Below, piece after piece: positions 1 to 21,415 of a DNA stretch of 64,000 bases. The notes under the pieces are model-generated. The model saw only the letters and a list, made by a program, of their open reading frames with translations. It did no database searches and had not been told where the DNA came from. Location of the stretch: positions 3,721 through 67,720 of IMG/VR virus record IMGVR_UViG_3300009170_000006. One strand, given 5' to 3'. Numbering within the stretch: position 1 is the first letter of the stretch; each line of letters begins with the position of its first letter. The translations under genes and the position numbers were made by a program. The stretch comes from a virus. Its lineage: Duplodnaviria; Caudoviricetes.

Positions 1-1337
1 ATTGACTTAATTTTAGCATCATCTACATTTTCAGCATATAAATCATCTTCTGTCCAGCCTAGTTCTTCAAGTAATTCTTCTTTTTTAAACTTTACATAAT
101 CATCAATACTATTTTTAAATTCTTCAGTATAGTCATGAAATTTACTTTCAACTCTTTTGTACTTAACTTTAGCCCAAGCTGCCTTTGCTTCTTCAGGACT
201 GTTAAAGTTATTAGCTTTAATATAATCTGTTGGTACACCATAAGCATACAATAAACTAGTTATTAACTTACGTAACTGAGTTGAGAATGTAGATTGTTGT
301 TTAAAGTAAGTATTAACTGCTGTTTGGTTTTTTAAGTAAGCAATATAAATAGTATTTGGTGTAAAAGTAAAGTCAGTTTTAAGATTACTTGTATCTCCTT
401 CAAATATAGAATCTCCAGTACTTTCAGGACTAGACTTTATATGTGATCTTTTAGAACCAGATGTGAATGTAATATAATCAATGTTTTGAGAAATCATTGC
501 TTTATGTAAATTATTAGCAGGAAAGTCTTTAATAACACTTGGTATTAATGGAAATAATGAATATTTATGAAAAGCTTGTATAGGAAATCTACCAACTTCT
601 GTAGCAAGAGGTCCATTGTATTGTAATTTATATACAGGGAACATGTTGTTTAATTCAGTAGCAGTAATTGTTTCTCCATTTATAACTCTAAAGTACAAAG
701 CATCTTGTTCATCTGACCAGTTACCTTCAGCTTGTCTAAGTATTCTATAAGTATCAAAAGTAATTAAAGCTTGACCATCAGCATCTTGAATGTCAATAAA
801 GGCTTTCATTTTACCACCTTTAAATACATTACTATATTTACCATTTTCATCAACCTCAGCATTACCTGGCTTACCTGTTCCAGGATCAACACCATATAAA
901 GCTACATTAATTTCATTATCAGTTAATCCTTTATCAGTATAATCTCTTTTAAATAAATCTCTATACATAGTAAAGTAAACTGAAGTAACTTCACTTTCTT
1001 GTATAATTGCTGAATTAAGAGTAGGACTATAAGTTCTTACTTCTTTTTCTGCAATAATCTTATCAGCTATAAGTTTTTGTTCATAAGGTCTTCCTACTTT
1101 AGCATCAATAAAGATCTTAGTTAATTTATCTACTGGAAATATAGTACCTCCAGATTGAGAACCAGGAGCTCTCTTACTCATCTCATCTTTAGTATGATCA
1201 AATTGAAAGCCATCTCCTTGTAATAAAAAAGTAGTTTCAGTCTTATGTATAAAATTATTAAGCATGTAAGATCTTACAGCTGCTTTTTTAATATTCAACT
1301 CTACATCTAATGGAGTAGCTCCATAAATATTATTTTT
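1..1337 (-). CDS. Virion RNA polymerase, conserved core segment (in-frame continuation after TAA at 1338-1340; truncated at left edge)
   Basis: Not in the ORF track. Hand translation of most of this stretch in the same frame as 1338..6203 gives ...RSYMLNNFIHKTETTFLLQGDGFQF...KRAPG..., DADGQALITFDTYRILRQAEGNW, HKYSLFPLIP, FTSGSK and STQLRKLI, which resemble crAss-like (phi14:2 gp66-type) RNAP motifs. The catalytic Asp triad would lie beyond the window. Confidence 0.8.
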
Positions 1338-4300
1338 TTATTTTGCATTATTTGCTAAATCTTTTAAGATAAGATCTTTTAATATTGCAGGTAAAGGTTG
1401 ATCAACTCCAAAAATTGGATCAAATAAATCTTTATTATAACTTTCTTCTAGCTTATCAAAAAACTTAACAATATTATTATCTAGTTGTTTCTTTAATGCT
1501 GGATTATCATTTAATACTTTATATAAGTCACCTTGCTCATTTAATTTTTCAAATATTTCTTCAGACTTTAAAGCCTCTTTAAGACCTGGAGCACCATCAA
1601 GTATCTCATCAAAAATGTCAAACTCAGTACCTCTTTCAAATCCTTTAATATTGTTATAGTATTCAGGGTCAGCTTTAATCATTGCAATTCTTCTGATCTC
1701 ACCTTCTAACTTAGGATATAGCATATCTAATACTTTTTGCATTGGATTATACCCCATTATAGATTTACCAGCAGCATCTTTCATAAAAGCTACAGTATCT
1801 ACATATAAACCTTTATTTATTTTTTCATCATAAGTATTAATAATATCAACTTTAATTCCAAAGTTAGAACTTTTATCACCAGCTTGAATTCCATCCATAT
1901 AACCTCCACCAAGAGTAGAAATAAATACAGATAATGTTTTATCTAAAAAACCCATTTTAGCACTAGTAGTACCATCACTAACAAAAGTTTCATCTATATA
2001 ACTAACACCACTAAGATCACGGTAGTTAATATCATTATTCTTAATTTTTTCATTTTCTCCAACAGTAGAGAATAAAGACTTTATAATAATAGAACCTTTT
2101 GTTAAAGGATTACTTCTAGGATTAAGAAAGTTCATGTGAACAAGTTCAGGATTATTTGAATATAAATCTCCTTGTTTATTAGCTTTTTTAAGACCATTTA
2201 TTTTTTGAGTATCACTACTGTTAAGACCAAATAAAGATTTTAACTTTTTAGCAGCATTAAATCTCATAGAGTTTGCATATTCTGTAGAATAAGTAGCTTC
2301 TATTTCAGCTAACTTGTTTACAGCAAAAGCATTTTTAGGAAGTTTTGTACCATTGCTTAATGTTCTAGCTTTACCTAAGTAAGCAACAATATTATCAATT
2401 TTTTGTATATCATTTTCTTTTACTGCTTGACTATTACTCTCTTCAGTTTTACCAATAGCATCAGCAATAAAGTCTATATCATTAGGTATAAGACTATCTC
2501 TAATTTCTGAAATATCAGATAAGTATAAACCAATACTATTTAAGAAAGGAATATAGTTTTCTCTTGAAACACTATAAGTATTTTTATTTTCATTATTTAC
2601 TCCTTTAATAAGATATCTACTAGCTACAGCTTCTAAGTCTATATAATTAACTTGATCTTTTTTATAAGTAAAGCTATCAATTTCTTTTTGTTGAAAAGCT
2701 AAAGGCCAATCAGTATTTACAATTCCTAGATATTCTGCAGTTGTTTTACCAACTCTTATTTCAGTAGGTTTATCTTTATATTCTTGAACAATAGCAACAA
2801 CTTGATCAATTTTATGCAAGTTAGCAGATTGTACAAATTTCATCCATAAAGATCCTATATCACTGCCTTGTCTAAACATTTCACCTATTGAATCTTCTGG
2901 AGAAAGCATTTTGCCATCTTCTGTTTGTTGTACATATATTTTACCTAGTAATTGTTTGAACAAAGGAGATACAGTATCTCCAGCAAGTTTAAGTTTGTTA
3001 AATAAACCTAGTACAGAAGTTTCACCTGAAGCTTTATCCATTAAAACTCTCCAGAAAGGTAAAAACTCAATTGGTTCAGCAAACCCTAATTCATTTAATT
3101 CAGCTTTTCCATCTTTAGTTTGTTTAGTTAAACTTTTTATTACATATAATACTAACTTATTAGCTAATTTTTCTGAAGCAACATCATTACTAGAAGCATC
3201 AAGACTTGTAGCTAACTCTTGTTGAGCAGTATCACTTGTTTCTTCATAGTCATCACTATCTTTTTCATCTGCTATAGGTTTGAATGTAGAGAATAAATCT
3301 TTAAATGTACTGTTATTTTTATGAAAAGACACAACTGAAACATCAGAAGTTTGACCAGCTAATGCTTTATTAATATTTCCAAAAACTTCATCATCAACAG
3401 CTTTAGTTAATAAAGTAATTTTATCATTGATAATAGTTAAGGCTTGTTCATCAGTAGGAGCAAGTTTAGATCTTTCAGCAGTTAACTCAATTATTCTATC
3501 ATTAAGTTCTTTCTTTGCTCTATTATAAATATTAGTTAAAGCATTTCTACTTGAGAATACTTTTGTTACTGCACTAAACTTACCTTTTCCAACTTGTTCA
3601 TTTACAAATTTAGATAATATACCATCAATAGTTCTAGTTAATAATAAACCTTCAGATATAGTTAAGTTTTTTTCAGCATTGCTTGTTATAATACCTCCAC
3701 TATTTAATGAACCAAACTCAGCATTTTTTAGATTAGCTGCATATGGTAATAGGTCTTTAGAAGATTTAGCTGTATACAATGCCTTAAACATGTCACCTAA
3801 GACACCTTCTGAACTTGTATTAGAATATACATCAGAATTCCCTACTAGAGCTTTTAAAGCTTTCCATATTCTATCAAATATTCTACCTAATGCAGTCTTT
3901 GCTTTAGAGTTAGTTTTAAACTTGCCACCATTCATAGCATACTTTCTAAATTCTTCAGCTATAAATTCTTCTAGTACTAATCTATCTTCTCTCTTATTTA
4001 CATCAAGATCTTTAAAGTTTAAAGTAACCATTCTATAAGAAACACCACCACCGGGTTCTACAAATTTCTTAACAACATTAAAGCTGCCTGGAAGTTTTGA
4101 TACAGGTTTGTATAACAACTCAGTTCTTTGATCTTTAGTTAAATACACCTGACTAAAAGCATGCCAACTCTCATGATAAACTTGAGTAAAACTAGCTCCT
4201 TTAAATAAAGTAATAGTTGAATTACTAAAATTGGCCCATGCATCAGAGTTTACAACATTTCTTAATAAGGATAGATTGAAAAGAGGTTTTCCAGCACTAT

Positions 4301-6203
4301 CCACTTCTTTAGCCAATGCTGATTCTTCTCTCCACCATTTTTCTGCTCTAGCATCTTGTTTAGGTGTAGCAGAGTTCTCCATTAACTTAGAAGCTTTTAA
4401 CTCATCAAATAAGTCTTCTTCTTCAGTATTAGTTACTGGTATGTTTTCAGCTACAGTATTAGCTCTAGTTTCAATTACTTGTTGTTTAACTTCAGCTTGA
4501 GTTAACTCAGCTTCAAATCTTAAATAACCATTTGATACCATTGGTAACCCTGTATTCTTATCTCTTACAACTCTAGGTGTAAACTTGTTGAATATAAATG
4601 GTTTATAAGCTAATTGATTATTAGCAACTATTCTGTAACCAACTGCTGTATCTTCAATGGTATATTTAGTATATTGTTGCTTTGTATAAAGCTTATCATT
4701 AAAATGAATATATACACTATTAGTAAAGAAGTCTTTAAGCATTTGCTTAGATAACTCTTTATTTTCTAAAGGTACAGCTACATTATTAAGATTAATATAA
4801 AGTTTTTTATTATTATCAGTTTTTATACCAATAATATAAGGTAAAAGTTTTGCATCAGATTCAGTACTATCTCTATAAAGATTAATAAATTGACTAACAT
4901 ATTGTTCTTTTTCTACATCAGTTAATCCAACATCTTCAGTAAGTACAGTTATAAGATGATCCATTAATTCAGGATCTTGATTACCAAGAGTTGTTGAATT
5001 TTTTAATGTTATTAAATTTTCTGCAGTATAAAACTTAACTGCTGGTAAAGTTCTTGTAACACCTTTTAATACTTTTCTTACAAAAACTACATTTGGATCA
5101 AAAGAATCTGCATCAAATTCTGATAAAGTAGCTCCTCCTTCTTTTTGTTCTTTCTCTGTTAAAGTATCTAAGTCTTGAGCTACTCCAACTGAGCCTCCAA
5201 TTAAATTAACTATAACAGGACCATTACTTAATTTATTTTTAAGATTTGTAAGATCTTCAGCATCTTTTGCAATTTTTTTATCAATTTCTTGTTCTTCCTC
5301 AGCTGTTAAATCTTTAATATTTTTAAGTATACTATTCTTAATTTTTTTATTATTTGCAACACTTACTGCTTTTAATACAAAGTAAATAGCTTTACCTTTA
5401 TTAATATCAGTAATTTTATGATTTTCATCAAAGTACATTACTTCACCTTGATTATTTGTTAAAGCAAGTACAGGTACTCTGCTTTTTGCAAACTGTTCTC
5501 TATTAGCTCTTCTGGTTCCTAGGATGTCATATTCATACATAACTTTTCCTTTGAAACCTCTATGCTCATCATATTCAAGTTCTGTAAAATCTTGGTCAGC
5601 ACTTGTTCTAGCTAATAAAATCTTAGCTAAACCATCTTGATAAAAAGCTTTATCTGCATCTCTAGCTGTTCTACTAGAAATAAGTTTACCATTTACTTTT
5701 TCTTCTTCAGCTGTTTGTTGAGCTGTTACACTGTATCCATCAACAGATAAGATATTATCTATAGCAAGTTCTTCTGAACCTTCTACTTTAAAATAAATCT
5801 TATCTTGGTTTGTAGCTTGTTGAGCTATTACTTTTTCTACTTCTTCAATACTTGTATTTTCTATACCTAGTAAAGTAGCAATAGCAGCCATTTTATCTTC
5901 AGCTTTCTTTAAAGTATTTATATCTTTAATTAACTGAGTTGAATCATAGCCTTTTTCTACAAGCTCATTTTCACTAAACTCAGGATTATTTCTTATTGTA
6001 TCAAAGATAATTTGAGGCACATGATAGGCAATACCCAATGATTGTTGAACATCATTTTTTGCACCTGCTACTTTTTTCTGAATAGTAATAATTATATCTT
6101 TATAATTAAACTTTTCCTCATTTAAAAGTTGACCTTCAATTAAAAGGTTTACATAATTTTCAAGATTCTCTTTTAAATTATTTTTACTTAAATCACATAC
6201 CAT
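1338..6203 (-). CDS. Giant virion RNA polymerase/cargo protein, N-terminal part with zincin-like domain
   Basis: 1621-aa ORF at the end of the cargo cluster; HESWH (HExxH) followed by EEFIAEEF; in frame with the RNAP motifs downstream. Confidence 0.75.
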   Translation of the reverse strand: MVCDLSKNNLKENLENYVNLLIEGQLLNEEKFNYKDIIITIQKKVAGAKNDVQQSLGIAYHVPQIIFDTIRNNPEFSENELVEKGYDSTQLIKDINTLKKAEDKMAAIATLLGIENTSIEEVEKVIAQQATNQDKIYFKVEGSEELAIDNILSVDGYSVTAQQTAEEEKVNGKLISSRTARDADKAFYQDGLAKILLARTSADQDFTELEYDEHRGFKGKVMYEYDILGTRRANREQFAKSRVPVLALTNNQGEVMYFDENHKITDINKGKAIYFVLKAVSVANNKKIKNSILKNIKDLTAEEEQEIDKKIAKDAEDLTNLKNKLSNGPVIVNLIGGSVGVAQDLDTLTEKEQKEGGATLSEFDADSFDPNVVFVRKVLKGVTRTLPAVKFYTAENLITLKNSTTLGNQDPELMDHLITVLTEDVGLTDVEKEQYVSQFINLYRDSTESDAKLLPYIIGIKTDNNKKLYINLNNVAVPLENKELSKQMLKDFFTNSVYIHFNDKLYTKQQYTKYTIEDTAVGYRIVANNQLAYKPFIFNKFTPRVVRDKNTGLPMVSNGYLRFEAELTQAEVKQQVIETRANTVAENIPVTNTEEEDLFDELKASKLMENSATPKQDARAEKWWREESALAKEVDSAGKPLFNLSLLRNVVNSDAWANFSNSTITLFKGASFTQVYHESWHAFSQVYLTKDQRTELLYKPVSKLPGSFNVVKKFVEPGGGVSYRMVTLNFKDLDVNKREDRLVLEEFIAEEFRKYAMNGGKFKTNSKAKTALGRIFDRIWKALKALVGNSDVYSNTSSEGVLGDMFKALYTAKSSKDLLPYAANLKNAEFGSLNSGGIITSNAEKNLTISEGLLLTRTIDGILSKFVNEQVGKGKFSAVTKVFSSRNALTNIYNRAKKELNDRIIELTAERSKLAPTDEQALTIINDKITLLTKAVDDEVFGNINKALAGQTSDVSVVSFHKNNSTFKDLFSTFKPIADEKDSDDYEETSDTAQQELATSLDASSNDVASEKLANKLVLYVIKSLTKQTKDGKAELNELGFAEPIEFLPFWRVLMDKASGETSVLGLFNKLKLAGDTVSPLFKQLLGKIYVQQTEDGKMLSPEDSIGEMFRQGSDIGSLWMKFVQSANLHKIDQVVAIVQEYKDKPTEIRVGKTTAEYLGIVNTDWPLAFQQKEIDSFTYKKDQVNYIDLEAVASRYLIKGVNNENKNTYSVSRENYIPFLNSIGLYLSDISEIRDSLIPNDIDFIADAIGKTEESNSQAVKENDIQKIDNIVAYLGKARTLSNGTKLPKNAFAVNKLAEIEATYSTEYANSMRFNAAKKLKSLFGLNSSDTQKINGLKKANKQGDLYSNNPELVHMNFLNPRSNPLTKGSIIIKSLFSTVGENEKIKNNDINYRDLSGVSYIDETFVSDGTTSAKMGFLDKTLSVFISTLGGGYMDGIQAGDKSSNFGIKVDIINTYDEKINKGLYVDTVAFMKDAAGKSIMGYNPMQKVLDMLYPKLEGEIRRIAMIKADPEYYNNIKGFERGTEFDIFDEILDGAPGLKEALKSEEIFEKLNEQGDLYKVLNDNPALKKQLDNNIVKFFDKLEESYNKDLFDPIFGVDQPLPAILKDLILKDLANNAK

Positions 6204-6204
6204 A

Positions 6205-9200
6205 TTAACAAAGGTTTTCTATAAAAGTTTCTTCTCCTGTTTTTAATCTTTTTTCATAATCTTCTTTATCTGCAGTTTTAGTCTTTTTAAACTCTTTAGG
6301 CTCTTCAGAAACAAGTTTCTCATTAGCCTTAATAGTTTCATTTTCCTCTACAGTTGATTCCTCAATACCTGGTTGTACAATTCTAAGATCTCTAACTAAA
6401 TTATCTTCATTTATTGTTACCTTTGCACCAAGGGCACTTTTCAAAGTTACTGAATTTGTTCCAACTTTCTCAATTTTATACTGAATATTATTATAAATAA
6501 CTTCAAATTTATTAGTTTGAGCAATCTTTAAACTTTTTAAATTTAAATTCTCATTTAACTGTTGACTATTTACTTTTGTTGGCCCTAATGTTGAAACAAC
6601 TACTTCTGTTTCAGGAACTATAACTAGCTCAGCCTGAGCAACATCTCTAGCTGCAAGCTTAGCTTCTTTAATTCTTGATTGAATTCTAGCATTCTTTCTA
6701 CTGATAGTAACAGGATATTCTTTTTGTTTACTAGCAACAACTTCTTTAGTATTAAGATTCATTGTAGTAGTAGTAAACTTATTTCCTATATTGTTTTCTT
6801 TATAGTTATCAATTAGTTCACTTAAGTATCTTACTTGATCTTGATATCTTAATAAAGCACTTAATAGTTGAGCTTGTCTTTCTTCTTCTTTAGTTTTTAC
6901 TGATTCAAGAAATTCAGCTGAGTTTATGTTATTTAATACTTCATTTTGAAGACTCTCAAGTTTATTTTTTATTGCAGGGTATTGAAAATTTTCATACTCA
7001 TTATCTGATATAAAAGTCTTAAGATTGTTTTCTTTATAAAATAAGTAACTAACATGTTCTTTAATATATCTTATTGAATCAGCAATAGCTCTTTTAACAG
7101 CTTCAAGTAGTTTACCTATAGTATCTATCTTAGAGTTTATCTTATTTCTTCTACCAATTAACTCGTCTCTTGTATAAGTACTAATTGTAGGGTCACTAAT
7201 TAATGAAGAGTAGTATTGAGCTTGTTTTTGTAAGTCTTGTTGTACAGCTTGAACATCAGATAATTCTTCTTGAAGTTCTTTTACTCTATCTGTAATATCA
7301 TTTAATAACTGAAACTCTGCTCTATAAGAAGCTTTAAGTTCAGCTATTTTTTCCTGAGCTTTAACACCTTTTGCAGTTTTTTTAGAACTTTTAGATTTAG
7401 TAGCAGCAGTTAAAGTTTTAATCTGGTTATCTATATTCTTAAGATTGTTTTGAATACCTTCAGTACTTGTATTTAATATACCATCTAAGTAAGAAAGAGT
7501 ATCAGTTATCTCAATAGCATCCAAACTTAAAGCCTCAGCTTTTTTCTCTAGTAACTCTATTCTTTTTTCAATAAATTCTTTTCTAGTTTCTAAAGTAGAA
7601 GTACCAGGTAAACCAAATCTTAATGCTTTTTCTTCAGCAGCTGTAAGACTTTCTCTAGGTTGCATTAATAATCTTTTAGTCTCAGCTTCAATAGCTTGAG
7701 TCTTAGCCTCTTTTTCAGTTGTTGGTGTCTCTGCTTTTGTAGGCCCTAATGTAGATACTACTTGTTCAGTTTGTTTTCTTAAAGGAAGTAATTTAGCATC
7801 TTTAATTTGATCTAAAGGTGTTAACTTTACACCAGGTAATAAGTTTAATTCAGTAGTAGATGTCTCACCAGCTTGATAGTTTATTTCAATAGGCATTACA
7901 CCTAAAGTAGTAGCTCTTAAGTTGTGAGTATTGTTTAATAAAATTCTATATAATGATAATTGCTTTTGATGTTTTAATTTATTAGAATCTTTTCCTTTAC
8001 CATAAGCATTTTCATATTTAGTTTTTCCTTTATTTTCACCACTATTATAAGTATCAGTAAACTGATTACCTCTCATAGTCTTCATATCATAAATACGGAT
8101 ATTACCTTGATCATCATAAGTAAGTAAATCTACAGTACCTGCAACACCTATCTTATCATCATACAATACAACATCATTAGCTAAAACCTTTTCACCTCTA
8201 GCATCCATTACAGCCTTAACTTTTTTCAAGTCTTCAACAAAAGATTCAATATCTTCTTGAGAAGCTACATCATAACTAGTCAAGTCTTTAAGTTCTCCAT
8301 TAAAGAAATCTCTTACTAGACCATCCACTTTTGTACCAATAACTTGAGAAGATGCTACTATAAGTTTATTTTCTATATCTCTATCAGTATAACCTAAAGC
8401 AGCTAATCTTTTTTCATAGTCTTCAAAAGATTCATCTTTTTTCATAGGATCTTTAAACTCATCTTCTGAAATATAAGTAGTAACCCTTTTATAAGTTTTA
8501 CCAGTCTTGCTGTTTACATATTGAGTACCATCTTCAGATAACTTAATAAATTCTTTATTAGAAACTATTTCTTGAATAGCCTCTTCTAATGTTTGTATTG
8601 GTGCATTTTTAAGCTCATCTTCTTTTTCTTTAGCAGCAATAGCTGTAAAGTTGCTGAATAATTTTAAAGCAATATCAAATTGAGGACCTGCAGTTACTTT
8701 ATTACCTTGAGCATCCATAAAGTATGTAGCTACTGGCATTTCTGTATCATTATCTAAAGCATTAGCATATGCTTCTATTAATTCATTAGGGATATTTAAA
8801 CCTGAGTCTTTAGTAACTAAATTTAATATACCATTGATACTAGTTAATCTATTAATTAACTTTTGATTTTCTTCAATAATACTTTCTTTATTATTAAGAA
8901 TTTCACTATAAGCATCATTTAATCTAGTGTGTAATTTAAAAAAATTCTGAGGAGCCATCAATATATTAATACTTTCAGCAAGACCTTTCATATCATCTCT
9001 AAGACTCATATGATCTTTAACTACACTATAAGCTTTTTCTATATCATCATTAAATACAATATGATCATTCTTTTTAGCTAAGAATTTAACATGCTCCATA
9101 AAAGCTTTCTTAGCTATTTCATCTTTAGCTTCTTTTTCTTCAGGAGTTTTTGCTTCTTTAACAGCTTTAACAGCTTCATAGAAATTATTTATAGTTTCTA

Positions 9201-11664: not shown

Positions 11665-11665
11665 C

Positions 11666-14443
11666 TTATTTATTTTTACTTTGATTTATTAATCTTTGTC
11701 TTTCATCAACTAAATCATTAGTTCTTTGACCATTTGCTAATCCATTAATGTATATATTAACTGTTTCATCTACAGCTTTAATATCATCAACAATATATGG
11801 ATTACCTTTAAGATCTATAATTTTATCACCATCATGTGATATATAATAAGGTTGTATTATAGTTGATTTTGTATCAGGATCATAATTAACTTCTATTCTA
11901 CCAGAAGTCTCTGAAAAGTTATTTACTGTATAAGAACCTTTTTCTAAAAGTACTTTCTCTATAGGCTGAACTTTTAAAGCTTTAGTAATATCTGTTTTAA
12001 TAGCAGTATTATCATAGAATAATGATATACCTCTTGTAAGAATATCAGGACTTACTAACCCTGGATTTTTTTCATTTTTAGTCATATAATCTTGAATATA
12101 TGCTTGAGAAGGTCTTATTGTAAAACCACTTTGAGTTAAATCATCAGCAGCAGTTCCGTTAACAACAACACTATAAATAGGTCTTTTGGCATCTGTTTTA
12201 TCAGCCTTATTCATGTCAATAAGAAGCTGTCTAAAAAATGCATCAGCTCCTGGATCACTATCTTTACTACTTGCATAATTTTCTGCATCAAGACCTCCTA
12301 TTAAAGCTTTGTATTTACCTGGGTTAGCAAAAGCTTGACTTAATGTGTTAGATATCTGTTTATTTATATCAGGATTTTGTGAAGCATCTACTCTATTAAA
12401 AAGTAATGAATTACTACTCTTCATACCAGAACCTTCATTCTTAGTAATATCAATCATTTGGTCAAAGCCTATTTTAGGTTGTCTATTGTAATCATATAAA
12501 AACTGACTCTTAGCTTTTTGGAAAGCATTTTCAATATCACCTTTACTACCATTAGGTCTTGTTTTTAAAAATTCAGTTATAAACTTTGCATTTGGTTTAT
12601 CATCATGATCTAAAACACCATACTCATTCACTAAATATTTTGCTAATTTAAAATCAGGATCTACTGAATTAGCTACTTTTTCAGCAGTAGTTTTAATTCC
12701 TTTTTTAAAATTATTTAATTGAGCAACACCTGCAGCAGCATCTATATCTACTTGTGCTAATGCAACACTATTACTTTTTAATACCTCTTTTCCCCAACTA
12801 GTGTTTGGATTATCTTTTATATAAGTTTGTGTTTTTTTTAAAGACTGTAAAGGTTGATCTTTAATAGCAGCTTTAACTTGTTCAGCTGTTTCCATAGTTT
12901 GCCATTTACCTTTACCATAAGTTTTATCTAAATAATCAATGGCTCCAGCACCTGTTGTAGGATCAGCAAGAGCAGCTTTTTTAGCAGCTTTAAAAGTTGT
13001 ATATAAAAGATTCATAGAACCATCATTAGCTTTTTTAAATACATCAGAACTTTCAGCAGCTTGTAACATGTATACTCCTTCAGGATGATCTACTAAATTT
13101 AAAGGTACATTTGATCCAACAGCTCCTGGAAATAATTCTGTAGTTGAATTTGTTTGTTCATTAGCTGTTGTTTTATCAAGATCTTTTTTATATTTTTCTA
13201 ATTCTTTATCTATATTGCTTTGAATAACTTTTTCAAAAATATTTAAATCACTTTTATATTTTTCAAGATTTTTTTTAAGAGCTAAATCATAAGCAGCAGT
13301 TTCTTTAACTATTGTATGTTCTGCACCTTGCATAGACATTATCTTAGCCATTTTGCTTAAGTCTTCATGTTGAAATGCTGCAGAATTAGATTGATCAAAC
13401 TTGTTGATTAAAGATCTCATATCACCAGAATCCATGTTTGTTTGAATACTAGTTAATCTAGATTGTAAGTTATCTCTAGTGACAGTAGCAGCTTCTCTTC
13501 TTTGTTTAATAACTTCTAATTCTTGTTTTTCTCTACTAGTTAAAGCTCCTTTTTTACGCTCAAGTTCAATCTGTCTACCTTTTAATTGGTTGTGGTTGTT
13601 ATTTACAATAGTTAAATCTTTATTTAAAGCTTTAATACCATTGTTCATATTTTTTTCAATGAAAGCTCTTTCAGCTGCTTTCTCATCATTATTATATTGA
13701 GGCATTAAACCTCTTACTGAATCTTTTCTAAAAACATAAGCTTTAGTATCATAATTATTAGAAACTCTAGGGTCATTACTATAAATTTGATCAAACATAT
13801 TATATAAAGCATTCTCTACTAATACACCATTTTTGTCTCTTACAATATAATGACCAGATTCACTATCTTGAGTAACAGTCATACCTTGATCTTTAAGATT
13901 TTTTGCAGCATCTTTTTGCCAGTTATAGTAAGCATCATAACTACCCATGTCAAAATTTAAAGCTTCATCATCAGAAGTAGCTTTGAACTCTTCCATTTTA
14001 TATTGAAGCTTTCTCATTGATGTTTCATTATATGTACCACCACATTTATCTTGGTCATAACAATATTTAGAATTTTCACCTTTGTCTAGTTCATTCATAT
14101 GGTTTTTAGTCTTGACCATGTCACTAACTAAATACTTATCATCATAGAATCCTTTAAATACATTTTGTGCTTGATCTACATTTTGCTGTAATGACAAGTC
14201 TAATCCTGATATTCTTTTAATATCATTATCAATTACCTTAAAGAACTCATCTCTTCTTTTAATATTAGTCTCTTTACTTAATGGTCCATTCAATAGGGAG
14301 CCATATAACTCACTTATTTGTTTCTTAGAAGCATCATACTTAGTTTGTCTTGTCTGTAAAACATTGCCCAAAAAGTTATAATCTGGGCGGAATGGTTGTA
14401 TCTGAGGTATGTAGTCTGTTACTCCTTGTAAGTAGGTTGCCAT
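11666..14443 (-). CDS. Putative ejected cargo/internal virion protein
   Basis: 925 aa, helical/coiled-coil N-terminus (MATYLQGVTDYIPQIQPFRPD), located in the cargo cluster. Confidence 0.6.
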   Translation of the reverse strand: MATYLQGVTDYIPQIQPFRPDYNFLGNVLQTRQTKYDASKKQISELYGSLLNGPLSKETNIKRRDEFFKVIDNDIKRISGLDLSLQQNVDQAQNVFKGFYDDKYLVSDMVKTKNHMNELDKGENSKYCYDQDKCGGTYNETSMRKLQYKMEEFKATSDDEALNFDMGSYDAYYNWQKDAAKNLKDQGMTVTQDSESGHYIVRDKNGVLVENALYNMFDQIYSNDPRVSNNYDTKAYVFRKDSVRGLMPQYNNDEKAAERAFIEKNMNNGIKALNKDLTIVNNNHNQLKGRQIELERKKGALTSREKQELEVIKQRREAATVTRDNLQSRLTSIQTNMDSGDMRSLINKFDQSNSAAFQHEDLSKMAKIMSMQGAEHTIVKETAAYDLALKKNLEKYKSDLNIFEKVIQSNIDKELEKYKKDLDKTTANEQTNSTTELFPGAVGSNVPLNLVDHPEGVYMLQAAESSDVFKKANDGSMNLLYTTFKAAKKAALADPTTGAGAIDYLDKTYGKGKWQTMETAEQVKAAIKDQPLQSLKKTQTYIKDNPNTSWGKEVLKSNSVALAQVDIDAAAGVAQLNNFKKGIKTTAEKVANSVDPDFKLAKYLVNEYGVLDHDDKPNAKFITEFLKTRPNGSKGDIENAFQKAKSQFLYDYNRQPKIGFDQMIDITKNEGSGMKSSNSLLFNRVDASQNPDINKQISNTLSQAFANPGKYKALIGGLDAENYASSKDSDPGADAFFRQLLIDMNKADKTDAKRPIYSVVVNGTAADDLTQSGFTIRPSQAYIQDYMTKNEKNPGLVSPDILTRGISLFYDNTAIKTDITKALKVQPIEKVLLEKGSYTVNNFSETSGRIEVNYDPDTKSTIIQPYYISHDGDKIIDLKGNPYIVDDIKAVDETVNIYINGLANGQRTNDLVDERQRLINQSKNK

Positions 14444-14460
14444 AGTAAAATATTATGTTT

Positions 14461-14473
14461 TAAATATACAAAA
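14461..14473 (-). promoter_or_regulatory. Probable promoter variant
   Basis: TTTTGTATATTTA upstream of 11666..14443; the same 13-mer occurs at 31558-31570. Confidence 0.4.
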
Positions 14474-14514: not shown

Positions 14515-15813
14515 TTATCCAACACCTTGTGGATTATTATGATAACCTTCATAAGCTCCAGAATTTGAATCTGCAGCTGCTCCTTTACCTAACATAGTTT
14601 TAAATATTTCTTTTTGTATTTCTGGATTAGGAGAATATTGTTGTGCTTTTTGCCATAAAGCATCATATTGATCATATCTAGTTGCAGGATTTATTGGAGT
14701 ATTATTTGGTTTAAAATAAGCAAAACCTCCACTAGAAGGATCAACAGCATACTGAGGATACAATGTATTTAAGTTAGCAGTATTAGCTCTATTAGTAATA
14801 GCATCAATATAAGATTGTCTTATTTGTTGTCTAGCTTGTGCTTTAGAATTATCAAATTGTTGATTAGCTACTGTATATTTATCAAACAATTGAGTATCAA
14901 GATTAGCTTTATTTTGGGAAGCTTGATTTAAAATACCTGTTTGTTGTTCAGATAATTGATTAGCTAACCCAACATTTAAGTTATTATATCTTCCCATTAC
15001 ATCAGCAGCAGCTTTAGCCATTTGACCTTGAGCAACTGTATTAGCAGCAGCTTGTTGTTGAGGATTAGTAAATGCTGCAGAATTTTGCATAGCCATGTTA
15101 GCCATTTCAGTATTAGCAGCAAGTTCTCTAGTAGGATCATAGAAAGTAGCTTCTGGTAATCTTACTTGAGGAGTAGCTTGCCAAGGTAAATACTTTTTAA
15201 GTCTAGCTTTATCTCCTACAGCACCAGCTGTTTTAATAATATCTTGTAACCACCAAGGAGCATTTTGATCTTCACCATAAGCAACAGGAGTATTTTGTTC
15301 AAAAGGTTTTCTTTCAACAACAGGTTTTTCAGCAGCAGGAGGAATAACTTTATCTTCTTCTGGAACTGTAAGCTTTTCCATTATCTTATCCCATCTTTCA
15401 CCAAGAAAATTATCATCAGGTCTATCAGCATAAGGCATTCCTAAATCTGTATGTATCTGTAATACTCTATCTTTAAATTTATCATTTTTAAGCAAGTATT
15501 CTTGAAACTCTTTATTTTGACCAGCTACTGTTCTGCTTTTAGGTTTAAATCCTGTTTCTGCAGCCCATTTTTCCCACTGAGCTTTATCATATTTTGAATG
15601 ATGAAGTTTATTACTACCATAACCATAAGGTTCTATTAATAAAGGAACATCCCCTGTAGCAGCTGCAGCTTTAGCGAGTCTTGTTTCAGGTCCTGATTTA
15701 GGAGTTGTTGTAGATACTACAACAGCATTTGGATGTGTCTGTTTAAAAGCTGACACTTTATCTTCAGGTATCTTATAAGTTTTATCACCTACTTTAAATG
15801 TTATATCGGCCAT
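14515..15813 (-). CDS. Putative cargo/internal virion protein
   Basis: 432 aa, Q/N/A-rich helical C-terminal half, no Cys, located in the cargo cluster. Confidence 0.55.
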   Translation of the reverse strand: MADITFKVGDKTYKIPEDKVSAFKQTHPNAVVVSTTTPKSGPETRLAKAAAATGDVPLLIEPYGYGSNKLHHSKYDKAQWEKWAAETGFKPKSRTVAGQNKEFQEYLLKNDKFKDRVLQIHTDLGMPYADRPDDNFLGERWDKIMEKLTVPEEDKVIPPAAEKPVVERKPFEQNTPVAYGEDQNAPWWLQDIIKTAGAVGDKARLKKYLPWQATPQVRLPEATFYDPTRELAANTEMANMAMQNSAAFTNPQQQAAANTVAQGQMAKAAADVMGRYNNLNVGLANQLSEQQTGILNQASQNKANLDTQLFDKYTVANQQFDNSKAQARQQIRQSYIDAITNRANTANLNTLYPQYAVDPSSGGFAYFKPNNTPINPATRYDQYDALWQKAQQYSPNPEIQKEIFKTMLGKGAAADSNSGAYEGYHNNPQGVG

Positions 15814-15825
15814 AGTTTTTTATTT

Positions 15826-17658
15826 TTATTTTTTTACTTCATATTGATCCCAATTTTCTTCTACAGGAGCTACTGTAGCTGTAGGGGCTATTGTTGCACT
15901 AGGTGCTGCAGCAGGTTTATCTTTAATAATTTTTATATTATCTTCTTTAGATGGGTTTCTTTTAATATATCTGTTTATATTTTTATCAAGATAGAATAAT
16001 TGACCAGGATACTTAGGATGTGCATATAAATCTTGATTAGCATCTTTATCAAAACCTACACTTTGCATTAAATCAGGACTATCATCTTTTTGAGTTCTAG
16101 TTAATACTTGTTTTAAAACAGGAGCTTTTAGTGGAGCTACTGTTGGAGAATATTTTCTAGTAAAGTCTGCAGCATCTTCTAATTTTTCAGCTACTACAGG
16201 TGCATATTTTCTAATTTTTTCATTAGTCCATTTAGCAGCTTGTGTTACTTTTTCACCAACCATTTCAGGTAATATTTTTGATGTTTCTTTTACAGATGTT
16301 TTACTTGCAGTTTTCAATGCTACAGGATCTATTTTAGAAATAAGTTTAGCTGGTTGTGTTTTTAATATGGGTTTTTTAATAAGCAAATCTACAGCTTTAT
16401 TAGCTGCTGTCTTATATGTTTTTTCAGCTATAGCAAAATTTCTTTCAGTAAGTTTTCTTCCTGAAGATTTTAAAAGTTCTTCAGCCATTTGTTTATTAAG
16501 TACTAATTTACTAGCTCCTTTTTTAAAACCTTCTGTTGCAACATGCCTAGCAGCATCTTGAGCAGCTTGTCTTGCAATCTCTGAAGCTATAGTTTTAACA
16601 CCTATTCTTGAAGCTGATTTTACAACACCAGCTACTAAACCTGGACTTATTAAATCTGCAGCAAAAGTTAATGCAGGAGATGCTTGTGGATAATTTCTTA
16701 AAATAGCTTCTGATGGCATTTCATATCTAGCTTTGTCACCAAACATTCCTGTACCTGCATACATTGCAGCTCTTTGTGGAAATTCTAATACACCTAAAGA
16801 AAAATCAGCAAGATCATTTAACACACCATTTTTTGTGTATTCCATATCAGCTTTATTAATTTGTAAAGGAGTATTATAAGAAGTTGCTGCAGTAAGTGAT
16901 CCAGTTGGTGCAGGTTTATTAATTGCACCTATTTGAGCTTTCATTAAACCTCCACCATATCTAGATACACCCATATCTTCATCAGATTGTTCTTCTTGAC
17001 CTTGTGTATCTACTTGTAAAAGTTCTTCAGGATTCATACCAGAAGCCATTACATAAGGCATAGCTACTACAGGAATACCTTGAGGAAATCCTTTAGATGA
17101 TTCTTGCACTAAAGCAAGTTTAGCTAACTTCATATTGTAGTTAGATATCATTAACTCTGCTGTGCTTCTATCAACATCTTCAGAATTAGGATCAGCTAAT
17201 ACTTGTCTAAATTTATTAATATCATACTTCTTAGCAATCTCAGCTGGAGTGTATCCAGACTTCTTTGGTACCATACCAAATTGTGCAAGCATGATAGGAT
17301 CTTTAATCTTCATCTTAGCTGTGTCACTAAAGATGAAAGAGTTATCAGGAAGGTTTAATGGAGTACCACCTTCACTATGTCTTTCACCACCAATTTTAAA
17401 ATGAGCAGGAATACCATCAATGTTTACCATTGCAGTTTCACCTCTTTCAGCTTCTAAGTTTGCATCTTCTCTAGCTACAGGTTGTAAAGTATCTCTTACT
17501 TCTGTAGGTTGTTGAGATATTTTTCCAGCTTCTAAGTGGCCATTTTTTCTAAATTGGCTATTACCATTTGTACCTTTACCATACAAACCAGCACTCATTT
17601 TCATTTCAAGTCCTGATAATGCTTTTGGTACTCTTTTAGTTATTCTAACTCTTGCCAT
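15826..17658 (-). CDS. Putative cargo protein with an EAExGE/HxxGG domain
   Basis: 610 aa; ANLEAERGE...GGERHSEGG...FIFSD motif block typical of crAss-like cargo proteins; hydrophobic central segment. Confidence 0.55.
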   Translation of the reverse strand: MARVRITKRVPKALSGLEMKMSAGLYGKGTNGNSQFRKNGHLEAGKISQQPTEVRDTLQPVAREDANLEAERGETAMVNIDGIPAHFKIGGERHSEGGTPLNLPDNSFIFSDTAKMKIKDPIMLAQFGMVPKKSGYTPAEIAKKYDINKFRQVLADPNSEDVDRSTAELMISNYNMKLAKLALVQESSKGFPQGIPVVAMPYVMASGMNPEELLQVDTQGQEEQSDEDMGVSRYGGGLMKAQIGAINKPAPTGSLTAATSYNTPLQINKADMEYTKNGVLNDLADFSLGVLEFPQRAAMYAGTGMFGDKARYEMPSEAILRNYPQASPALTFAADLISPGLVAGVVKSASRIGVKTIASEIARQAAQDAARHVATEGFKKGASKLVLNKQMAEELLKSSGRKLTERNFAIAEKTYKTAANKAVDLLIKKPILKTQPAKLISKIDPVALKTASKTSVKETSKILPEMVGEKVTQAAKWTNEKIRKYAPVVAEKLEDAADFTRKYSPTVAPLKAPVLKQVLTRTQKDDSPDLMQSVGFDKDANQDLYAHPKYPGQLFYLDKNINRYIKRNPSKEDNIKIIKDKPAAAPSATIAPTATVAPVEENWDQYEVKK

Positions 17659-17667
17659 AATATTTAT

Positions 17668-20600
17668 TTAAATATATTCTACATCATATCCTTGTGCTCT
17701 TAACTCAGCAATCTCATCTTCATTTAAATCTTCTTCATAAGATTCTTCTTCAGCTGCACCACCTGTTGCATAACCACCATATCTCATTGGTTGTTGTTGA
17801 GGTTCTTGACCACCTTGTAATTGTTGCATTACAGCTTGTATGATTTGTATTACTTGTTCTTGAGGTATACCCATTTCAACTAATTGCTTAGCAACTTGTT
17901 CTGGTTGTGCACCTTGTTGTAACATAGTAGCAACACCTTGCATGATTTGTTCTTGTTGAGGTTGAGCTTGCATACCACCATTTTGGAAAGATCCACCATA
18001 AGCACTATATCCCATATAACCAGGGAATTGTACTGGTACCATTGAGTTAGGTCTAAACATTCCAGAGTTAGGATCATAATCACCTCTACTACCACCATAT
18101 TGTGCATTAGCTGGAGTAGATACAAAAGCATTATCTGCTAATCTTAGTTCTCCTAATTTTTGTTCATTCTCAGCATTTTGACCAGCCTCTAAAAAACCAG
18201 ATGCAAGATTAGTTCCTGCAATCATAGCATTAGCCATTCCTTCCCCACTAAATCCTGGTCTTCCTTTTTGAGTAATAGTAGCTGTTTTATTTACACCATC
18301 CTTTTTCATCATGGTATTTTTTTGTTGTATACCTACTGACTCAGGTGTAGAAAAAGCTGGTTGAGGAGTTCCTTGATAAGAAATATTTGAAGGAGCTGCT
18401 CCTGGTGCATTACCTATTGGAGTAAAAGAACCTTGATTAGTCATAGGATTAGAACTTAATCCCATATTACCAGTAGCTGAACTTAAGCCTATTGCATTAC
18501 CAAAATTATCATAAGTACCATCAGCAGCATTTGTACTCATATGATCTTTACCATATTGAGCTTTTGATAATCCACCATATTTTTTAGGTATTGTTTCACT
18601 ATCCTTTAAAATTTGCTTAGGTATAAAACCTTGCATTGCATCTGTTGTTGGAGTATTATCAACTCTTGGTCCAACTAATGGAAGAGCAGCTTGTTCTTCA
18701 AATGAAGGTTGAGTAGTATTATTCTTTAAATCTACTTGAATAGGATCTTGTTTATTTTCAGTAAAAGGAGCTTGATCTTTATAACCAAAAGTCATTTTAG
18801 TTTTACTCCAAGGACCAAAGTGTCTATGACTAAATTCTTTAAGATTAGTTGAAGGATTATCTGCAAGTTGTTGCATCATTCCTACATCTTTTTTAGAAAT
18901 TTTATTATAAGGACTATAGTTCATAGGAATATAATTCATTCCTCTTGTTCCTTGAGAACCAAAGTATTTATTATACTGAGCTTGATTTTCTTTAGCCTTT
19001 CTTTGTTCATCCATCCACTCCCATTCTTCTGCTGACATGTTTCTTTGACCAGTTTGAATTCCATCAGCAGCATAAGAAACAGAAGTTTTAGTATATGGAT
19101 TAGCAGTAGCTCCTAAATAATTCATAGACTGTCCAAAATTACTAAAGTCATTTTTTAAATTAGATTGTGTATCATCTATTCTTTGTTGATACATGCTCTG
19201 CATTGCTTGATTCTGTTTATTAAACTGAGGTTCTTGATTATAACCACCAGCATAACCACCCATTTGTTTAATAACATCAGAAACAACATCTTGTTCTTCA
19301 TTCATTAAAGCATTCATAGTATTAGCTTGAATACCTTTTTTAAAAGCATTAGTAATACCTTGACCATAATTATCAGAATTACCACCTTGAGTTACAGTAT
19401 CTCCACCGTAAGCTTTCTTCATCTTCTTTGAAGCAGCCTTAATAAGGTTCAACAAATTATATTTTCCTCCATCTTCAAAAGTAGGATAAGACATGTTATT
19501 GCTAGGATCAATTACTCCTCCTTCTTCTTTAAAAGGATATGTAGCATTATGGGCATAATCAGAATATAGGTCATAACCTTTTTGAATTATGTTACCTTTA
19601 TTAAAAGCTTCAGCCTCTTTTCTTGATTTTTTAGTATCAAGTGCATTTCCTACAATTACTTTATCTCCTTTAAATATGGTTTTAAGATTAGGATTTCCTG
19701 GAAAAACATGACTAGAATCAGGCCCTATTACTTTAGTTTCAGGATTCATATACTGATTTATATCACTATTTGGATCAAATGTATCAAATGCAGAAGAACC
19801 TATATCTACCCTTGATCCAACAGTTATAGGTTTTTTACCAAATCTATTTGCTAATCTTATTTGTTCTTCAGCTGCAAATTTTTCATCAGGAGTTAAATCT
19901 TTTCCTCTTGTATTAAAAAATTTATTAATATTTGGACCTTCAGGAGAATAAGGAGTTTTAGGATTAATAAATTCACCAGCTGTTTGGTATTGTTTTATAC
20001 CACCATTTTTCATAGGTACATTGAATGATCCATAGTTAGTAGGAGAAGCTGTGTTACCACCCATATCCATATACCCACCGTATTCTTTATAACTAGTATT
20101 CTTAAAATAAGGATTAGCTTTATTTTCAAATTTATTTAAATTTTGTGGTTCATTTTTTTGCATATAAGGAATACTTGCTCCACTAAGGTTTTCCTTTTTA
20201 TATATTAAGTTTTTATTATATTCTTTATTTGGGTTAAAAATAGTATTAAAAGGAACATCTTCAAAACCTTCATTTACTGTAGGATATACTTTATTTAAAG
20301 AATCTATTTTACTAACAATATCATATTTAGGATTTCTATAAAGACTATCAATTTGTGCTTTATAAGCAGTATTAGCATTCTCATCATCTTGACCTCTTGT
20401 TGAATAATGATCTATTCTACCAAAAGCTTGATCTGCAGCAGCAACTTGTTGAGGAGTAAGTGTTACTTGACTTCCTTGTTTATCACCTTGATATTTTTGT
20501 AAACCTCCACCATATGCATAAGGTCTAGTAGGTCCACCATAATAAGGTGTTCCACCTTCAGCAGCATAATAAGGATTACCCATAGGTACATTTACTGAGT

Positions 20601-20775: not shown

Positions 20776-20779
20776 AATA

Positions 20780-20791
20780 CAAATATACAAA
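20780..20791 (-). promoter_or_regulatory. Probable -7 promoter element
   Basis: TTTTGTATATTTG directly upstream of 17668..20775; no canonical -33 box. Confidence 0.5.
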
Positions 20792-20798
20792 AATTAAA

Positions 20799-21413: not shown

Positions 21414-21415
21414 AT

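Follow-up and report, generated by a model that had tools for sequence, protein, structure and literature searches.

Paired terminal cysteines at the junctions of consecutive virion cargo proteins in crAss-like phages are consistent with a disulfide-linked chain

The window analysed here, a 64,000-nucleotide stretch of a Caudoviricetes virus (IMG/VR record IMGVR_UViG_3300009170_000006, positions 3,721 to 67,720), carries two giant genes side by side on the minus strand, one for an 1819-aa protein (protein A, P0002) and one for a 1621-aa ORF (P0001), with the single base 6204 between them (Table 1). The first-pass annotation had noticed that the former has its only Cys as the final residue (C1819) and the latter its only Cys at residue 3, that the genes are 1 nt apart, and that the neighbouring cargo ORFs are nearly free of Cys; each of these observations was confirmed. 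The interval that it gave, 6195-6210, spans exactly from one Cys codon to the other. Protein A consists of an N-terminal A-head, a nuclease domain, and then a charged linker and a terminal helix. Its residues 1043-1254 matched the phrog_298 exonuclease in PHROGs (E = 1.8e-10), a nuclease domain in common with crAss001 gp47 and its relatives, and tblastn with A retrieved the 'putative RNA-polymerase subunit' of crAss001 and its relatives (48 phage records, 27-33% identity). When 24 A-type homologues were aligned, only 20 columns were invariant, and C1819 is among them. A megablast search of phage records with the 5 kb surrounding the junction gave no match, and Pfam returned 0 families for the 4 proteins searched, protein A included. 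The search for relatives' loci with a single protein gave 0 of 69 candidates and succeeded only from alignment A1.

Table 1. Positions of the cargo genes and junction features (window coordinates unless stated otherwise)
Feature	Position (nt)	Strand	Remark
Protein A, 1819 aa	6205..11664	-	gp47-like first chain link
PD-(D/E)XK-like nuclease domain of A	7903-8538	-	residues 1043-1254
C-terminal tail of A	6208..6366	-	residues 1767-1819; predicted to dock on B head (co-fold)
Cys1819 codon TGT	6208..6210	-	final residue and sole Cys of A (P0002)
TAA stop of protein A	6205-6207	-
1621-aa ORF (P0001)	1338..6203	-	N-terminal part of protein B (vRNAP giant)
N-terminal head of B	6123..6203	-	residues 1-27, MVCDLSKNNLKENLENYVN...; predicted interface residues (co-fold)
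Cys3 codon TGT	6195..6197	-	sole Cys of 1621-aa ORF (MVCDL)
HExxH of 1621-aa ORF	4161-4175	-	residues 677-681
In-frame TAA	1338..1340	-	splits protein B in this assembly
Protein B continuation	3..1298	-	leaves window and contig
DFDVD motif	L002 nt 3018-3032		about 0.7 kb past window base 1; same contig, outside window
925-aa cargo protein	11666..14443	-	upstream of A; internal Cys pair C128, C134
432-, 610-, about 1035- and 880-aa ORFs	14515..24058	-	Cys-free
Homing-endonuclease ORF	20799-21413		interrupts block; 3 Cys

Over all window ORFs Cys amounts to 1.45%, and the tail-region proteins are very Cys-rich (up to 7.4%). In the cargo block the 432-, 610- and 880-aa ORFs have 0 Cys, and the 925-aa protein has only C128 and C134. 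This pair was also found in the related loci L003-L008, and comparable internal pairs occur in crAss001 gp45 (C390/C398) and phi14:2 g069 (C369/C378); the 925-aa protein is outside the terminal-Cys chain. A 'Cys4' in a 1040-aa ORF was discounted, since it arises from a TTG-extended start and translation probably begins at MTKEEML.

The 1621-aa ORF had been labelled as an RNAP in the first-pass annotation, a label that did not stand. The ORF has an HExxH motif and no DxDxD motif, and it aligns colinearly with the B proteins of L003-L005 (3856-3860 aa) over their residues 1-1617; it covers no more than the N-terminal portion of the RNAP protein. The catalytic motif DFDVD belongs to the following ORF, which is separated by one TAA but unchanged in frame. 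It is invariant in alignment A3 and agrees with the DFDxD form of the two-barrel Crassvirales virion RNAP. The A3 profile (9 rows, led by the ORF of the window contig) matched PDB 6vr4_A, the phi14:2 gp66 RNAP (E = 1.4e-85). Neither single sequences nor the C-protein profile A2 retrieved anything from the PDB, and PHROGs gave nothing for P0001. In tblastn against the phage collection there was no match for P0001 and only 4 weak records for the RNAP ORF, with no N4-like record among the matches listed for the two. On both flanks of the TAA the sequence is homologous to B of L003 and L005, where the protein is unbroken, and position 1340 is C, giving the codon GAA (Glu), in the contigs of 2/2 covering runs (X2 and X7; runs X5 and X10 had no depth at this position). 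The junction that the TAA makes in the window has Cys on neither side, which would make sense were the TAA an error or of recent mutational origin.

C3 is the sole Cys in both homologues of the 1621-aa ORF in which the N-terminus is present (P0003, 62% identity; P0004, 40%), and it is 1 of 14 invariant columns across B N-termini (9/9). Among the first 22 residues of P0001, P0003 and P0004, 17 are invariant, compared with an overall identity to P0004 of 41%; judged by alignment, the head of B is far better conserved than the remainder of the protein.

The arrangement was then compared across 16 genomes (the window, 7 IMG/VR lineages, crAss001, Kolpuevirus, cr106_1, DAC15, IAS virus, phi14:2, cr11_1 and cr110_1), scoring Cys within the last 10 residues of the upstream protein and the first 8 residues of the downstream one. 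Cys was present on both sides in 30/31 junctions between consecutive cargo proteins. At the outer ends of the series, an N-terminal Cys was found in 0/16 first proteins and a C-terminal Cys in 0/13 complete last proteins. The lone exception, the junction of IAS 837 and 2159, has no N-terminal Cys; here the ORFs overlap and the record contains Ns. Co-occurrence of the terminal Cys across Crassvirales had been set beforehand as a check on the first-pass proposal, and the proposal passed it: junctions are paired, chain ends are without Cys, and the pair is lost on gene fusion (see below). In phi14:2, g067 has its sole Cys at the last residue, g066 (the crystallised RNAP, 2180 residues) has two Cys, C3 and C2179, and no others, and the only Cys of g065 is C3; all three are annotated as virion proteins detected by MS. 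In gut phages B and C are not wholly cleared of internal Cys, with totals of 2-7 and, for one IAS piece, 10, and the C-terminal Cys of crAss001 gp50 lies 9 residues from the end. The A gene is on the strand opposite B and C in crAss001, Kolpuevirus, cr106_1, DAC15 and IAS virus, the distance between the genes ranges from 1 to 10 nt in loci where they are adjacent, and L007 has TGC in place of TGT at one junction. Therefore no DNA or translational-coupling motif accounts for the pattern, and gene adjacency is unnecessary for Cys pairing. The chain has 2 to 4 members, A followed by B/vRNAP, an optional V, and C, and extends beyond the two proteins of the first-pass annotation.

The placement of Cys was also examined in 150 database representatives clustered at 50% identity, many of which may be fragments or have wrong starts. 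Profiles were built by phmmer and hmmsearch iterations. Cys occurred in the last 8 residues of 101/150 and in the first 8 residues of 34/150 (expected, 0.91 each), and 136 of the 183 Cys in the set were 10 or fewer residues from an end. Among single-Cys proteins the Cys was terminal in 96/99, at an overall Cys content of 0.053%. The earlier remark that such placement is unlikely to arise by chance was thus upheld by the 101 observed against 0.91 expected and by the invariance of the C1819 and C3 columns. Which end carried Cys depended on the type of protein. All A-head proteins had a C-terminal Cys only (43/43), and C-core-only proteins had an N-terminal Cys only in 20/22 and a C-terminal Cys in 0/22; the two exceptions start inside the C-core and are therefore N-truncated. 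A+B fusions had a C-terminal Cys only. Full fusions, B+C giants of at least 4980 aa with an A-type nuclease, had a terminal Cys in 0/6, and 5/6 of them (4980-5368 aa) had no Cys whatsoever. On a B-core tree of 37 rows, from which 6 fragments were dropped, a long N-terminal extension went with absence of the N-terminal Cys (19 rows with both, 17 with neither, 1 discordant, P0034), and 7 independent pairs gave 6-7 concordant and 0 contrary contrasts (sign test p = 0.016-0.031). Similarly, fusion to the C-core went with absence of the C-terminal Cys (6 and 31 rows, 0 discordant), where 3/3 independent pairs agreed, too few for significance (p = 0.25). From these sequences, the junction Cys disappear once the neighbours fuse into one polypeptide. 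When the fused giants were scanned with HMMs for the A tail and the B head, the former junction could be placed in one case only, in L010, whose 4232-aa protein has a B-head segment at residues 1431-1491. A-head and nuclease were undetected in this protein, which is therefore called an N-terminally extended B and is not counted as an established A+B fusion.

In two cases the C-terminal tail modules track the downstream partner, not the protein that carries them. Residues 306-468 of V in L004 matched the B tail of L005 (residues 3701-3860; 38.7%, E = 1e-24), and L004 V and L005 B each stand before an 'MLSCP' protein. The B proteins of L004 and L005 are about 50% identical elsewhere, and their last 170-225 residues do not align. 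Likewise, the V tail of L008 matched the B tail of L007 (44%, E = 2e-8), both before 'MKG[SA]CP' proteins. These comparisons demonstrated that Cys placement follows a conserved rule, that this rule is coupled to gene fusion and fission, and that tail modules are specific to the partner.

Docking of the window's own tail and head was modelled by co-folding P0001 residues 1-300 with P0002 residues 1690-1819 on their own shallow alignments (9 and 24 rows). Three runs scored 0.85, 0.85 and 0.69 and the best of 3 controls 0.00, on the model's own confidence scale, on which a mark of that level was reached by 58/80 solved complexes and 2/110 mismatched pairs. The runs share at least 36% of contacts, with partner pLDDT of at least 66. 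The predicted interface includes residues 1-17 of P0001 and 1817-1819 of P0002, in an antiparallel register that sets P0001 residues 10-24 against P0002 residues 1817-1807. Co-folding of the two termini, as the first-pass annotation had suggested, thus predicted that they dock, with a score well above the best control, but C3-C1819 was not among the most confident contacts, and the method gives no distances. If the register is extrapolated, C1819 would face P0001 residues of about 8-11, and the first residues must therefore fold back for C3 to reach it.

From these results a working model can be outlined. The virion-packaged RNAP module would be a linear chain of A (gp47-like), B (the vRNAP, gp50/gp66-like), an optional V, and C (gp49/gp65-like). 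Each junction would be made of two parts, a C-terminal tail module with Cys 1 to 9 residues from the end and the N-terminal head of the next protein with Cys at residues 3-5, the tail helix being predicted to dock antiparallel on the head helix. The thiols would lock as an inter-protein disulfide after the particle exits the reducing cytoplasm. Because the links would lie at the extreme termini and nearly all other Cys have been removed, the product would have the topology of a single polypeptide chain, unbranched and about 5,000-7,500 residues long. It could be packaged 1:1:1 and pass the narrow tail N-to-C, in what would be ordered threading, after which the host cytoplasm would reduce the links and the thread would separate into its subunits. 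Synthesis and packaging of the cargo take place in a reducing cytoplasm, and gut crassviruses inhabit anoxic surroundings; the bond would have to form late, or the thiols may serve otherwise. The specific link proposed in the first-pass annotation, from the C-terminal Cys of A to the N-terminal Cys of B, survives in modified form: the comparative pattern and the co-fold model favour it, but the 1621-aa ORF is not the whole RNAP and the chain has more than two members. We consider it probable, with substantial room for doubt, that the cargo is held together as a single linear thread by the docking of cognate tails and heads, with a terminal disulfide as the lock. To the broader proposal of a disulfide-concatenated pseudo-polyprotein throughout Crassvirales, in which the connectors set order and stoichiometric packaging, transmit an N-to-C pull via the tail and are unlinked by host reductants, making delivery redox-gated, we would give an even chance.

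The same observations bear on whether the terminal Cys join gene-order neighbours at all. They could instead anchor the cargo to the portal, the capsid interior or Cys-rich tail proteins, form homotypic dimers, or let B close on itself while A pairs with C. The Cys-rich tail-region proteins of the window and the disulfide-stapled tail of crAss001 fit anchoring, and B cyclisation with A-C pairing is compatible with parity taken alone. Anchoring or homodimers would not predict chain ends that are free of Cys at the first N-terminus (0/16) and the last C-terminus (0/13), however, nor would they predict the Cys-free full fusions (5/6) or tail modules that follow the downstream protein; the co-fold model moreover puts the A tail on the B head. 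We regard partners of this kind as rather unlikely.

Alternatively, tails and heads may dock with a metal ion (Zn, Fe, Cu) or some other bridging group held between their thiols. This would fit the comparative pattern and the docking model equally well, needs no oxidation and so suits anoxic gut hosts, and the residue after the N-terminal Cys is often acidic (MVCD, MICD). With only two Cys per junction and no conserved His or second Cys beside either terminus among the termini listed, the site would have two ligands, which is weak for a link facing packaging pressure, and we judge a metal bridge improbable. Comparably improbable is that the thiols act singly, whether in a redox or activation switch, as targets of covalent modification, or as a packaging or processing signal, with the Cys-free interior reflecting selection for unfolding at ejection. 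The ejected proteins of N4 are wholly Cys-free without any chain, and Cys removal therefore has a separate cause; a zincin-like HExxH in B or A proteins might also process termini. Yet thiols acting alone would leave unexplained the facing Cys pairs, their joint loss on fusion, and the co-variation of tails with partner heads. Chance, shared ancestry or a nucleotide-level junction signal has next to no probability: the genes of the window family do abut, with Cys codons flanking stop and start, and the relatedness of homologues makes raw counts overstate independence, but the excess over expectation at C-termini, the retention of Cys while flanking residues, spacer and codon (TGC in L007) vary, the A gene on the other strand in 5 reference phages, and 7 phylogenetically independent contrasts with 0 contrary contradict all three.

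Crassviruses are the most abundant human-gut phages. The terminal-Cys rule offers a concrete hypothesis that is cheaply testable in cultured phi14:2, crAss001 and DAC15. It names exact residue pairs, predicted to be gp67 C1797 with gp66 C3 and gp66 C2179 with gp65 C3 in phi14:2, and gp47 C2339 with gp50 C5 and gp50 C2404 with gp49 C5 in crAss001, and it would allow chain order and cargo membership to be read directly off metagenomic sequence. Known polyprotein fusions would be recast as covalent counterparts of the split arrangement. The proposed disulfide-concatenated chain would also account for Cys exclusion from ejected phage giants, N4 included. The terminal-Cys rule further suggests how vehicles for protein delivery might be designed, with a body devoid of Cys, connectors bearing terminal Cys, and release by reduction.

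In the literature search, which covered article texts, no description of a terminal-Cys cargo chain in crAss-like phages was found. In its article text, Bayfield 2023 (PMC10172136) reports disulfides in the crAss001 tail and gp57, and detection of the cargo proteins gp45, 46, 47, 49 and 50 in virions by MS; reduced and non-reduced virion samples are described there, and that text reports no disulfide-linked cargo adduct. The word 'cysteine' occurs 0 times in the main texts of PMC10172136 and of the Drobysheva 2020 preprint (10.1101/2020.03.07.982082), and 'disulfide' only for the tail and gp57 in the former and 0 times in the latter. The preprint supposed that the polyprotein is cleaved into parts; our comparisons suggest the opposite, that separate parts may be rejoined.

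Among known systems, N4 (Schitoviridae) gp50 is likewise a giant RNAP stored in the capsid and expelled via a short tail before the DNA, according to a 2026 N4 paper (PMC13434306). Together with the co-ejected gp51 and gp52 it has 0 Cys in 3500 + 644 + 150 residues, like the fully fused crass-like giants; it differs in being one polypeptide with NTD, core and CTD and no terminal Cys. The same text places the N4 RNAP structurally nearer to T7 RNAP, treats a common origin with crassvirus gp66 as not established, and states that structures of crassvirus ejection proteins are still needed (PMC13434306). T7 gp14, gp15 and gp16 and P22 gp7, gp16 and gp20 are also stored in the capsid and exit the tail before the DNA, partly unfolded; they differ in that section 11 of PMC10172136 describes no covalent end-to-end linkage for them. 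The closest systems are crAss001 gp47/gp50/gp49 and phi14:2 gp67/gp66/gp65, homologues of the window proteins, A sharing the gp47 nuclease-like domain and B matching gp66 by profile; both modules are giant helical virion cargo that obeys the terminal-Cys rule. In AB toxins such as diphtheria toxin and the clostridial neurotoxins, a single disulfide holds the cargo chain while it is translocated along a narrow route, until reduction in the target cytosol frees the cargo. There the one link comes from nicking a single precursor, with no end-to-end series of separate genes, and the toxins are non-virion proteins; without any homology, their interchain disulfide may nevertheless work in a manner analogous to that proposed here for the Cys links of the crAss-like cargo.

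In the window, protein A (P0002, gp47-like, the first chain link) and the 1621-aa ORF that follows it (P0001) lie with a single base between the stop codon of A and the next ATG, and positions 6195–6210 span exactly the interval from Cys codon to Cys codon. This spacing, and the single Cys at the final residue of A, were as the first-pass annotation had read them. Its statement that the other cargo proteins are nearly Cys-free also held: the 432-, 610- and 880-aa ORFs have no Cys and the 925-aa ORF has two (C128 and C134). A further candidate, Cys4 of a 1040-aa ORF, was rejected; it falls within a TTG-extended start, and the likely start, MTKEEML, comes after it. Cys content over all window ORFs is 1.45%, reaching 6–7% in some downstream structural ORFs. 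Separately, the ORFs transcribed immediately before the Cys-free cargo block are, by contrast, very rich in Cys and could, by analogy with those reported for crAss001, be disulfide-stapled tail or fibre parts.

Coordinates of the features discussed, in the window unless another record is named
Feature	Record	Positions	Strand	Remarks
Protein A, 1819 aa	window	6205–11664	(-)	sole Cys is the last residue
1621-aa ORF, start MVCDL	window	1338–6203	(-)	sole Cys is residue 3
TAA ending the 1621-aa ORF	window	1338–1340	(-)	in frame with next ORF, inside stretch homologous to unbroken B
HExxH, zincin-like	window	4161–4175	(-)	N-terminal half of B
VVSTLGPTK, first copy	window	7735–7761	(-)	A residues 1302–1310
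VVSTLGPTK, second copy	window	6574–6600	(-)	A residues 1689–1697
Cargo protein upstream of A	window	11666–14443	(-)	internal close Cys pair
GIY-YIG/homing-endonuclease ORF	window	20799–21413	(-)	phrog_314, E 9e-24; 3 Cys
Cys-rich ORFs	window	29250–40623	(-)	1066 aa, 79 Cys (7.4%); 418 aa, 30 Cys; 231 aa, 15 Cys
837- and 2159-aa ORFs	IAS virus (L017)	9756–18738		overlapping; translations contain X from Ns
A-position protein, Intestiviridae	L024/L025	9601–15567		HExxH annotated
Giant protein	cr110_1 (L025)	15645–28898		MSC at residues 15–17

The 1621-aa ORF had been taken for the RNA polymerase with a sole Cys at residue 3. The Cys was found there, but the ORF is not itself the polymerase: it contains HExxH, a search of it for DxDxD found none, and the polymerase motif DFDVD was located in the next ORF, in the same frame after one TAA. 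A profile led by this DFDVD-bearing ORF matched the solved phi14:2 gp66 RNAP (6vr4_A, E 1.4e-85). Because relatives encode both ORFs as one 3856–3860-aa protein, and because in runs X2 and X7 (different studies; two of two with depth there) the contigs have C at position 1340, which makes the TAA a Glu codon, GAA, the 1621-aa ORF is, on homology, the N-terminal part of the giant vRNAP protein B (gp50/gp66-like), and the split reflects either a mistake in assembly or a nonsense mutation particular to this strain. The nuclease domain of A is PD-(D/E)XK-like (phrog_298, E 1.8e-10) and matches genes annotated as "RNA-polymerase subunit" in 48 Crassvirales records, crAss001 among them. The source contig is 67.7 kb (IMG/VR; completeness 56% as estimated by CheckV), and no near relative of the window was found among deposited phages. 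Among the matches listed, near-identical sequence to window 1000–7000 occurred in at least 20 runs from 13 studies, labelled as freshwater sediment, soil, wetland, lake water, and freshwater or sediment metagenomes, and half or more of the sampled words of this interval were present in at least 10 runs.

A sole Cys at residue 3 was also found in the B relatives P0003 (62% identity) and P0004 (40%), against which the first 22 residues are conserved far above the remainder. An alignment-based scan for related loci returned eight IMG/VR loci. All but L010, where one 4232-aa ORF spans the A and B positions, have an A homologue with exactly one Cys, among the final three residues; the B homologues have a Cys at residue 3–4 and a second within the last three residues, and the genes after B repeat the terminal-Cys pattern. 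In all five contigs that were extended, the block closes with a gene carrying just an N-terminal Cys, after which the coding strand switches. The order is A with a C-terminal Cys only, B with both, an optional member V with both, and C (gp49/gp65-like) with an N-terminal Cys only.

The same order was observed in crAss001 (gp47, C2339 of 2341; gp50, C5 and C2404 of 2412; gp49, C5) and phi14:2 (g067, C1797 of 1797; g066, exactly C3 and C2179 of 2180; g065, C3), and the rule is kept in Kolpuevirus, cr106_1, DAC15 and IAS virus; the Intestiviridae cr11_1 and cr110_1 follow it with a two-member chain. In gut phages, B and C retain a few internal Cys. The suggested co-occurrence across Crassvirales neighbours was borne out by a scripted tally of 16 genomes, in which 30 of 31 junctions had Cys on both sides, the first chain protein never had an N-terminal Cys (0/16), and a complete last protein never had a C-terminal one (0/13). 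The only junction breaking the pattern is IAS 837|2159, in a record with Ns, where sequence errors may have divided a single B gene into these two ORFs. For the cr110_1 giant protein, the true start probably lies 14 codons downstream of the annotated one, at an MSC like that of cr11_1. An explanation by the junction DNA is excluded, because A lies on the strand opposite to B and C in five reference phages, spacers between adjacent chain genes vary, and L007 uses a TGC codon.

Other features of the cargo proteins were recorded alongside. The internal Cys pair upstream of A is kept in L003–L008, L016 and L022 (C128/C134 in the window and six loci; C390/C398 in crAss001 gp45; C369/C378 in phi14:2 g069) and may close a small loop or connect subunits, apart from the terminal chain. 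Each copy of VVSTLGPTK stands directly after a domain and ahead of a charged linker, and could serve in processing or docking. The homing-endonuclease ORF, flanked by Cys-free 880-aa and ~1035-aa ORFs, may have interrupted a single gene, or have been inserted between separate ones. HExxH, in B of the window lineage, was placed in gp65 of phi14:2 by Drobysheva (10.1101/2020.03.07.982082); from these positions, domains appear to shift among chain members while the terminal-Cys rule persists.

A full-library search with A residues 920–1819 gave 273 matches. Among the best 150 of these, which are not independent homologues, Cys fell within the last eight residues in 101 and within the first eight in 34, each against 0.91 expected from the proteins' own Cys counts; 136 of 183 Cys lay at most 10 residues from an end, and 96 of 99 single-Cys proteins had it terminally. 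Chance, which the first-pass annotation had already thought unlikely, is thereby dismissed. Architecture classes were assigned by local profiles on the tabulated and reference proteins, some of which, being metagenomic, may be truncated or carry wrong starts. The A-head class had a C-terminal Cys only (43/43), and the C-core-only class an N-terminal Cys only (20/22; the two exceptions begin inside the core) and never a C-terminal one (0/22). B-only proteins had both in 17 cases, a C-terminal Cys only in 12 and none in four (three later removed as fragments, and N-truncated P0005). Most of those with a C-terminal Cys only are long (3–5.5 kaa) and hence probably A+B. Nuclease-bearing B+C giants of at least 4980 aa had no terminal Cys (0/6), and five of the six were wholly Cys-free. 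On a B-core FastTree of 37 rows (fragments P0083, P0005, P0052, P0131, P0121 and P0095 left out), Cys state shifts together with fusion state: on the N side, six to seven of seven independent pairs were concordant and none contrary (p 0.016–0.031; one discordant row, P0034), and on the C side three of three (p 0.25, too few pairs; no discordant rows), contrasts that, on a tree with long branches, partially remedy the non-independence.

The tails follow the partner. V of L004 (residues 306–468) matches the B tail of L005 (E 1e-24), an MLSCP protein coming next in both, whereas the two B proteins, ~50% identical elsewhere, have unalignable tails. Similarly, the V tail of L008 matches the B tail of L007 (E 2e-8), with MKG[SA]CP next in both. 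In these alignments the C-terminal module tracks the downstream protein, not its carrier. Co-folding of P0001 residues 1–300 with P0002 residues 1690–1819, each with its own alignment, scored 0.85, 0.85 and 0.69 (best of three controls, 0.00). Of 80 solved complexes 58 attain this mark, as do 2 of 110 mismatched pairs; the runs share at least 36% of their contacts, and partner pLDDT was at least 66. The A tail is thus predicted to dock on the B head through an antiparallel helix pair, in an interface modelled to include both Cys-bearing ends. The proposed co-fold of the termini therefore predicted docking, but C3–C1819 was absent from the top-confidence contacts; by the register, C1819 sits nearer P0001 residues 8–11.

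These results demonstrated a conserved rule of Cys placement, coupled to fusion and fission and accompanied by partner-tracking tails. We propose that paired terminal thiols would become disulfides once the particle exits the cytoplasm; the linked cargo would form one linear thread, the counterpart of the natural polyproteins, securing 1:1:1 packaging and ordered N-to-C passage, and would be reduced upon reaching the host. Rival explanations are a metal bridge at the paired thiols; anchoring, homotypic pairing or cyclisation of B; and single-thiol roles. A heterotypic chain is favoured over them by the rule at the chain ends, by the full fusions that lack Cys, and by tails that track the partner. 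The module genes and their occasional fusion were already known (10.1101/2020.03.07.982082). Neither the rule on terminal Cys nor its reading as a chain was found described in a literature search of texts outside supplements, in agreement with the earlier remark that no such ejection mechanism was known; "cysteine" does not occur in the main text of the Drobysheva preprint (10.1101/2020.03.07.982082), of Bayfield 2023 (PMC10172136) or of the 2026 N4 paper (PMC13434306). Consistent with a disulfide thread, crAss001 particles contain disulfides and its gp45 was proposed to leave N-to-C (PMC10172136), and the termini of isolated gp66 are disordered (10.1101/2020.03.07.982082). Also consistent, phage N4 ejects its RNAP as a single chain, and this protein and its helpers (gp50, gp51 and gp52; 3500, 644 and 150 aa) contain no Cys; by analogy, proteins that leave through phage tails may generally be marked by Cys exclusion.
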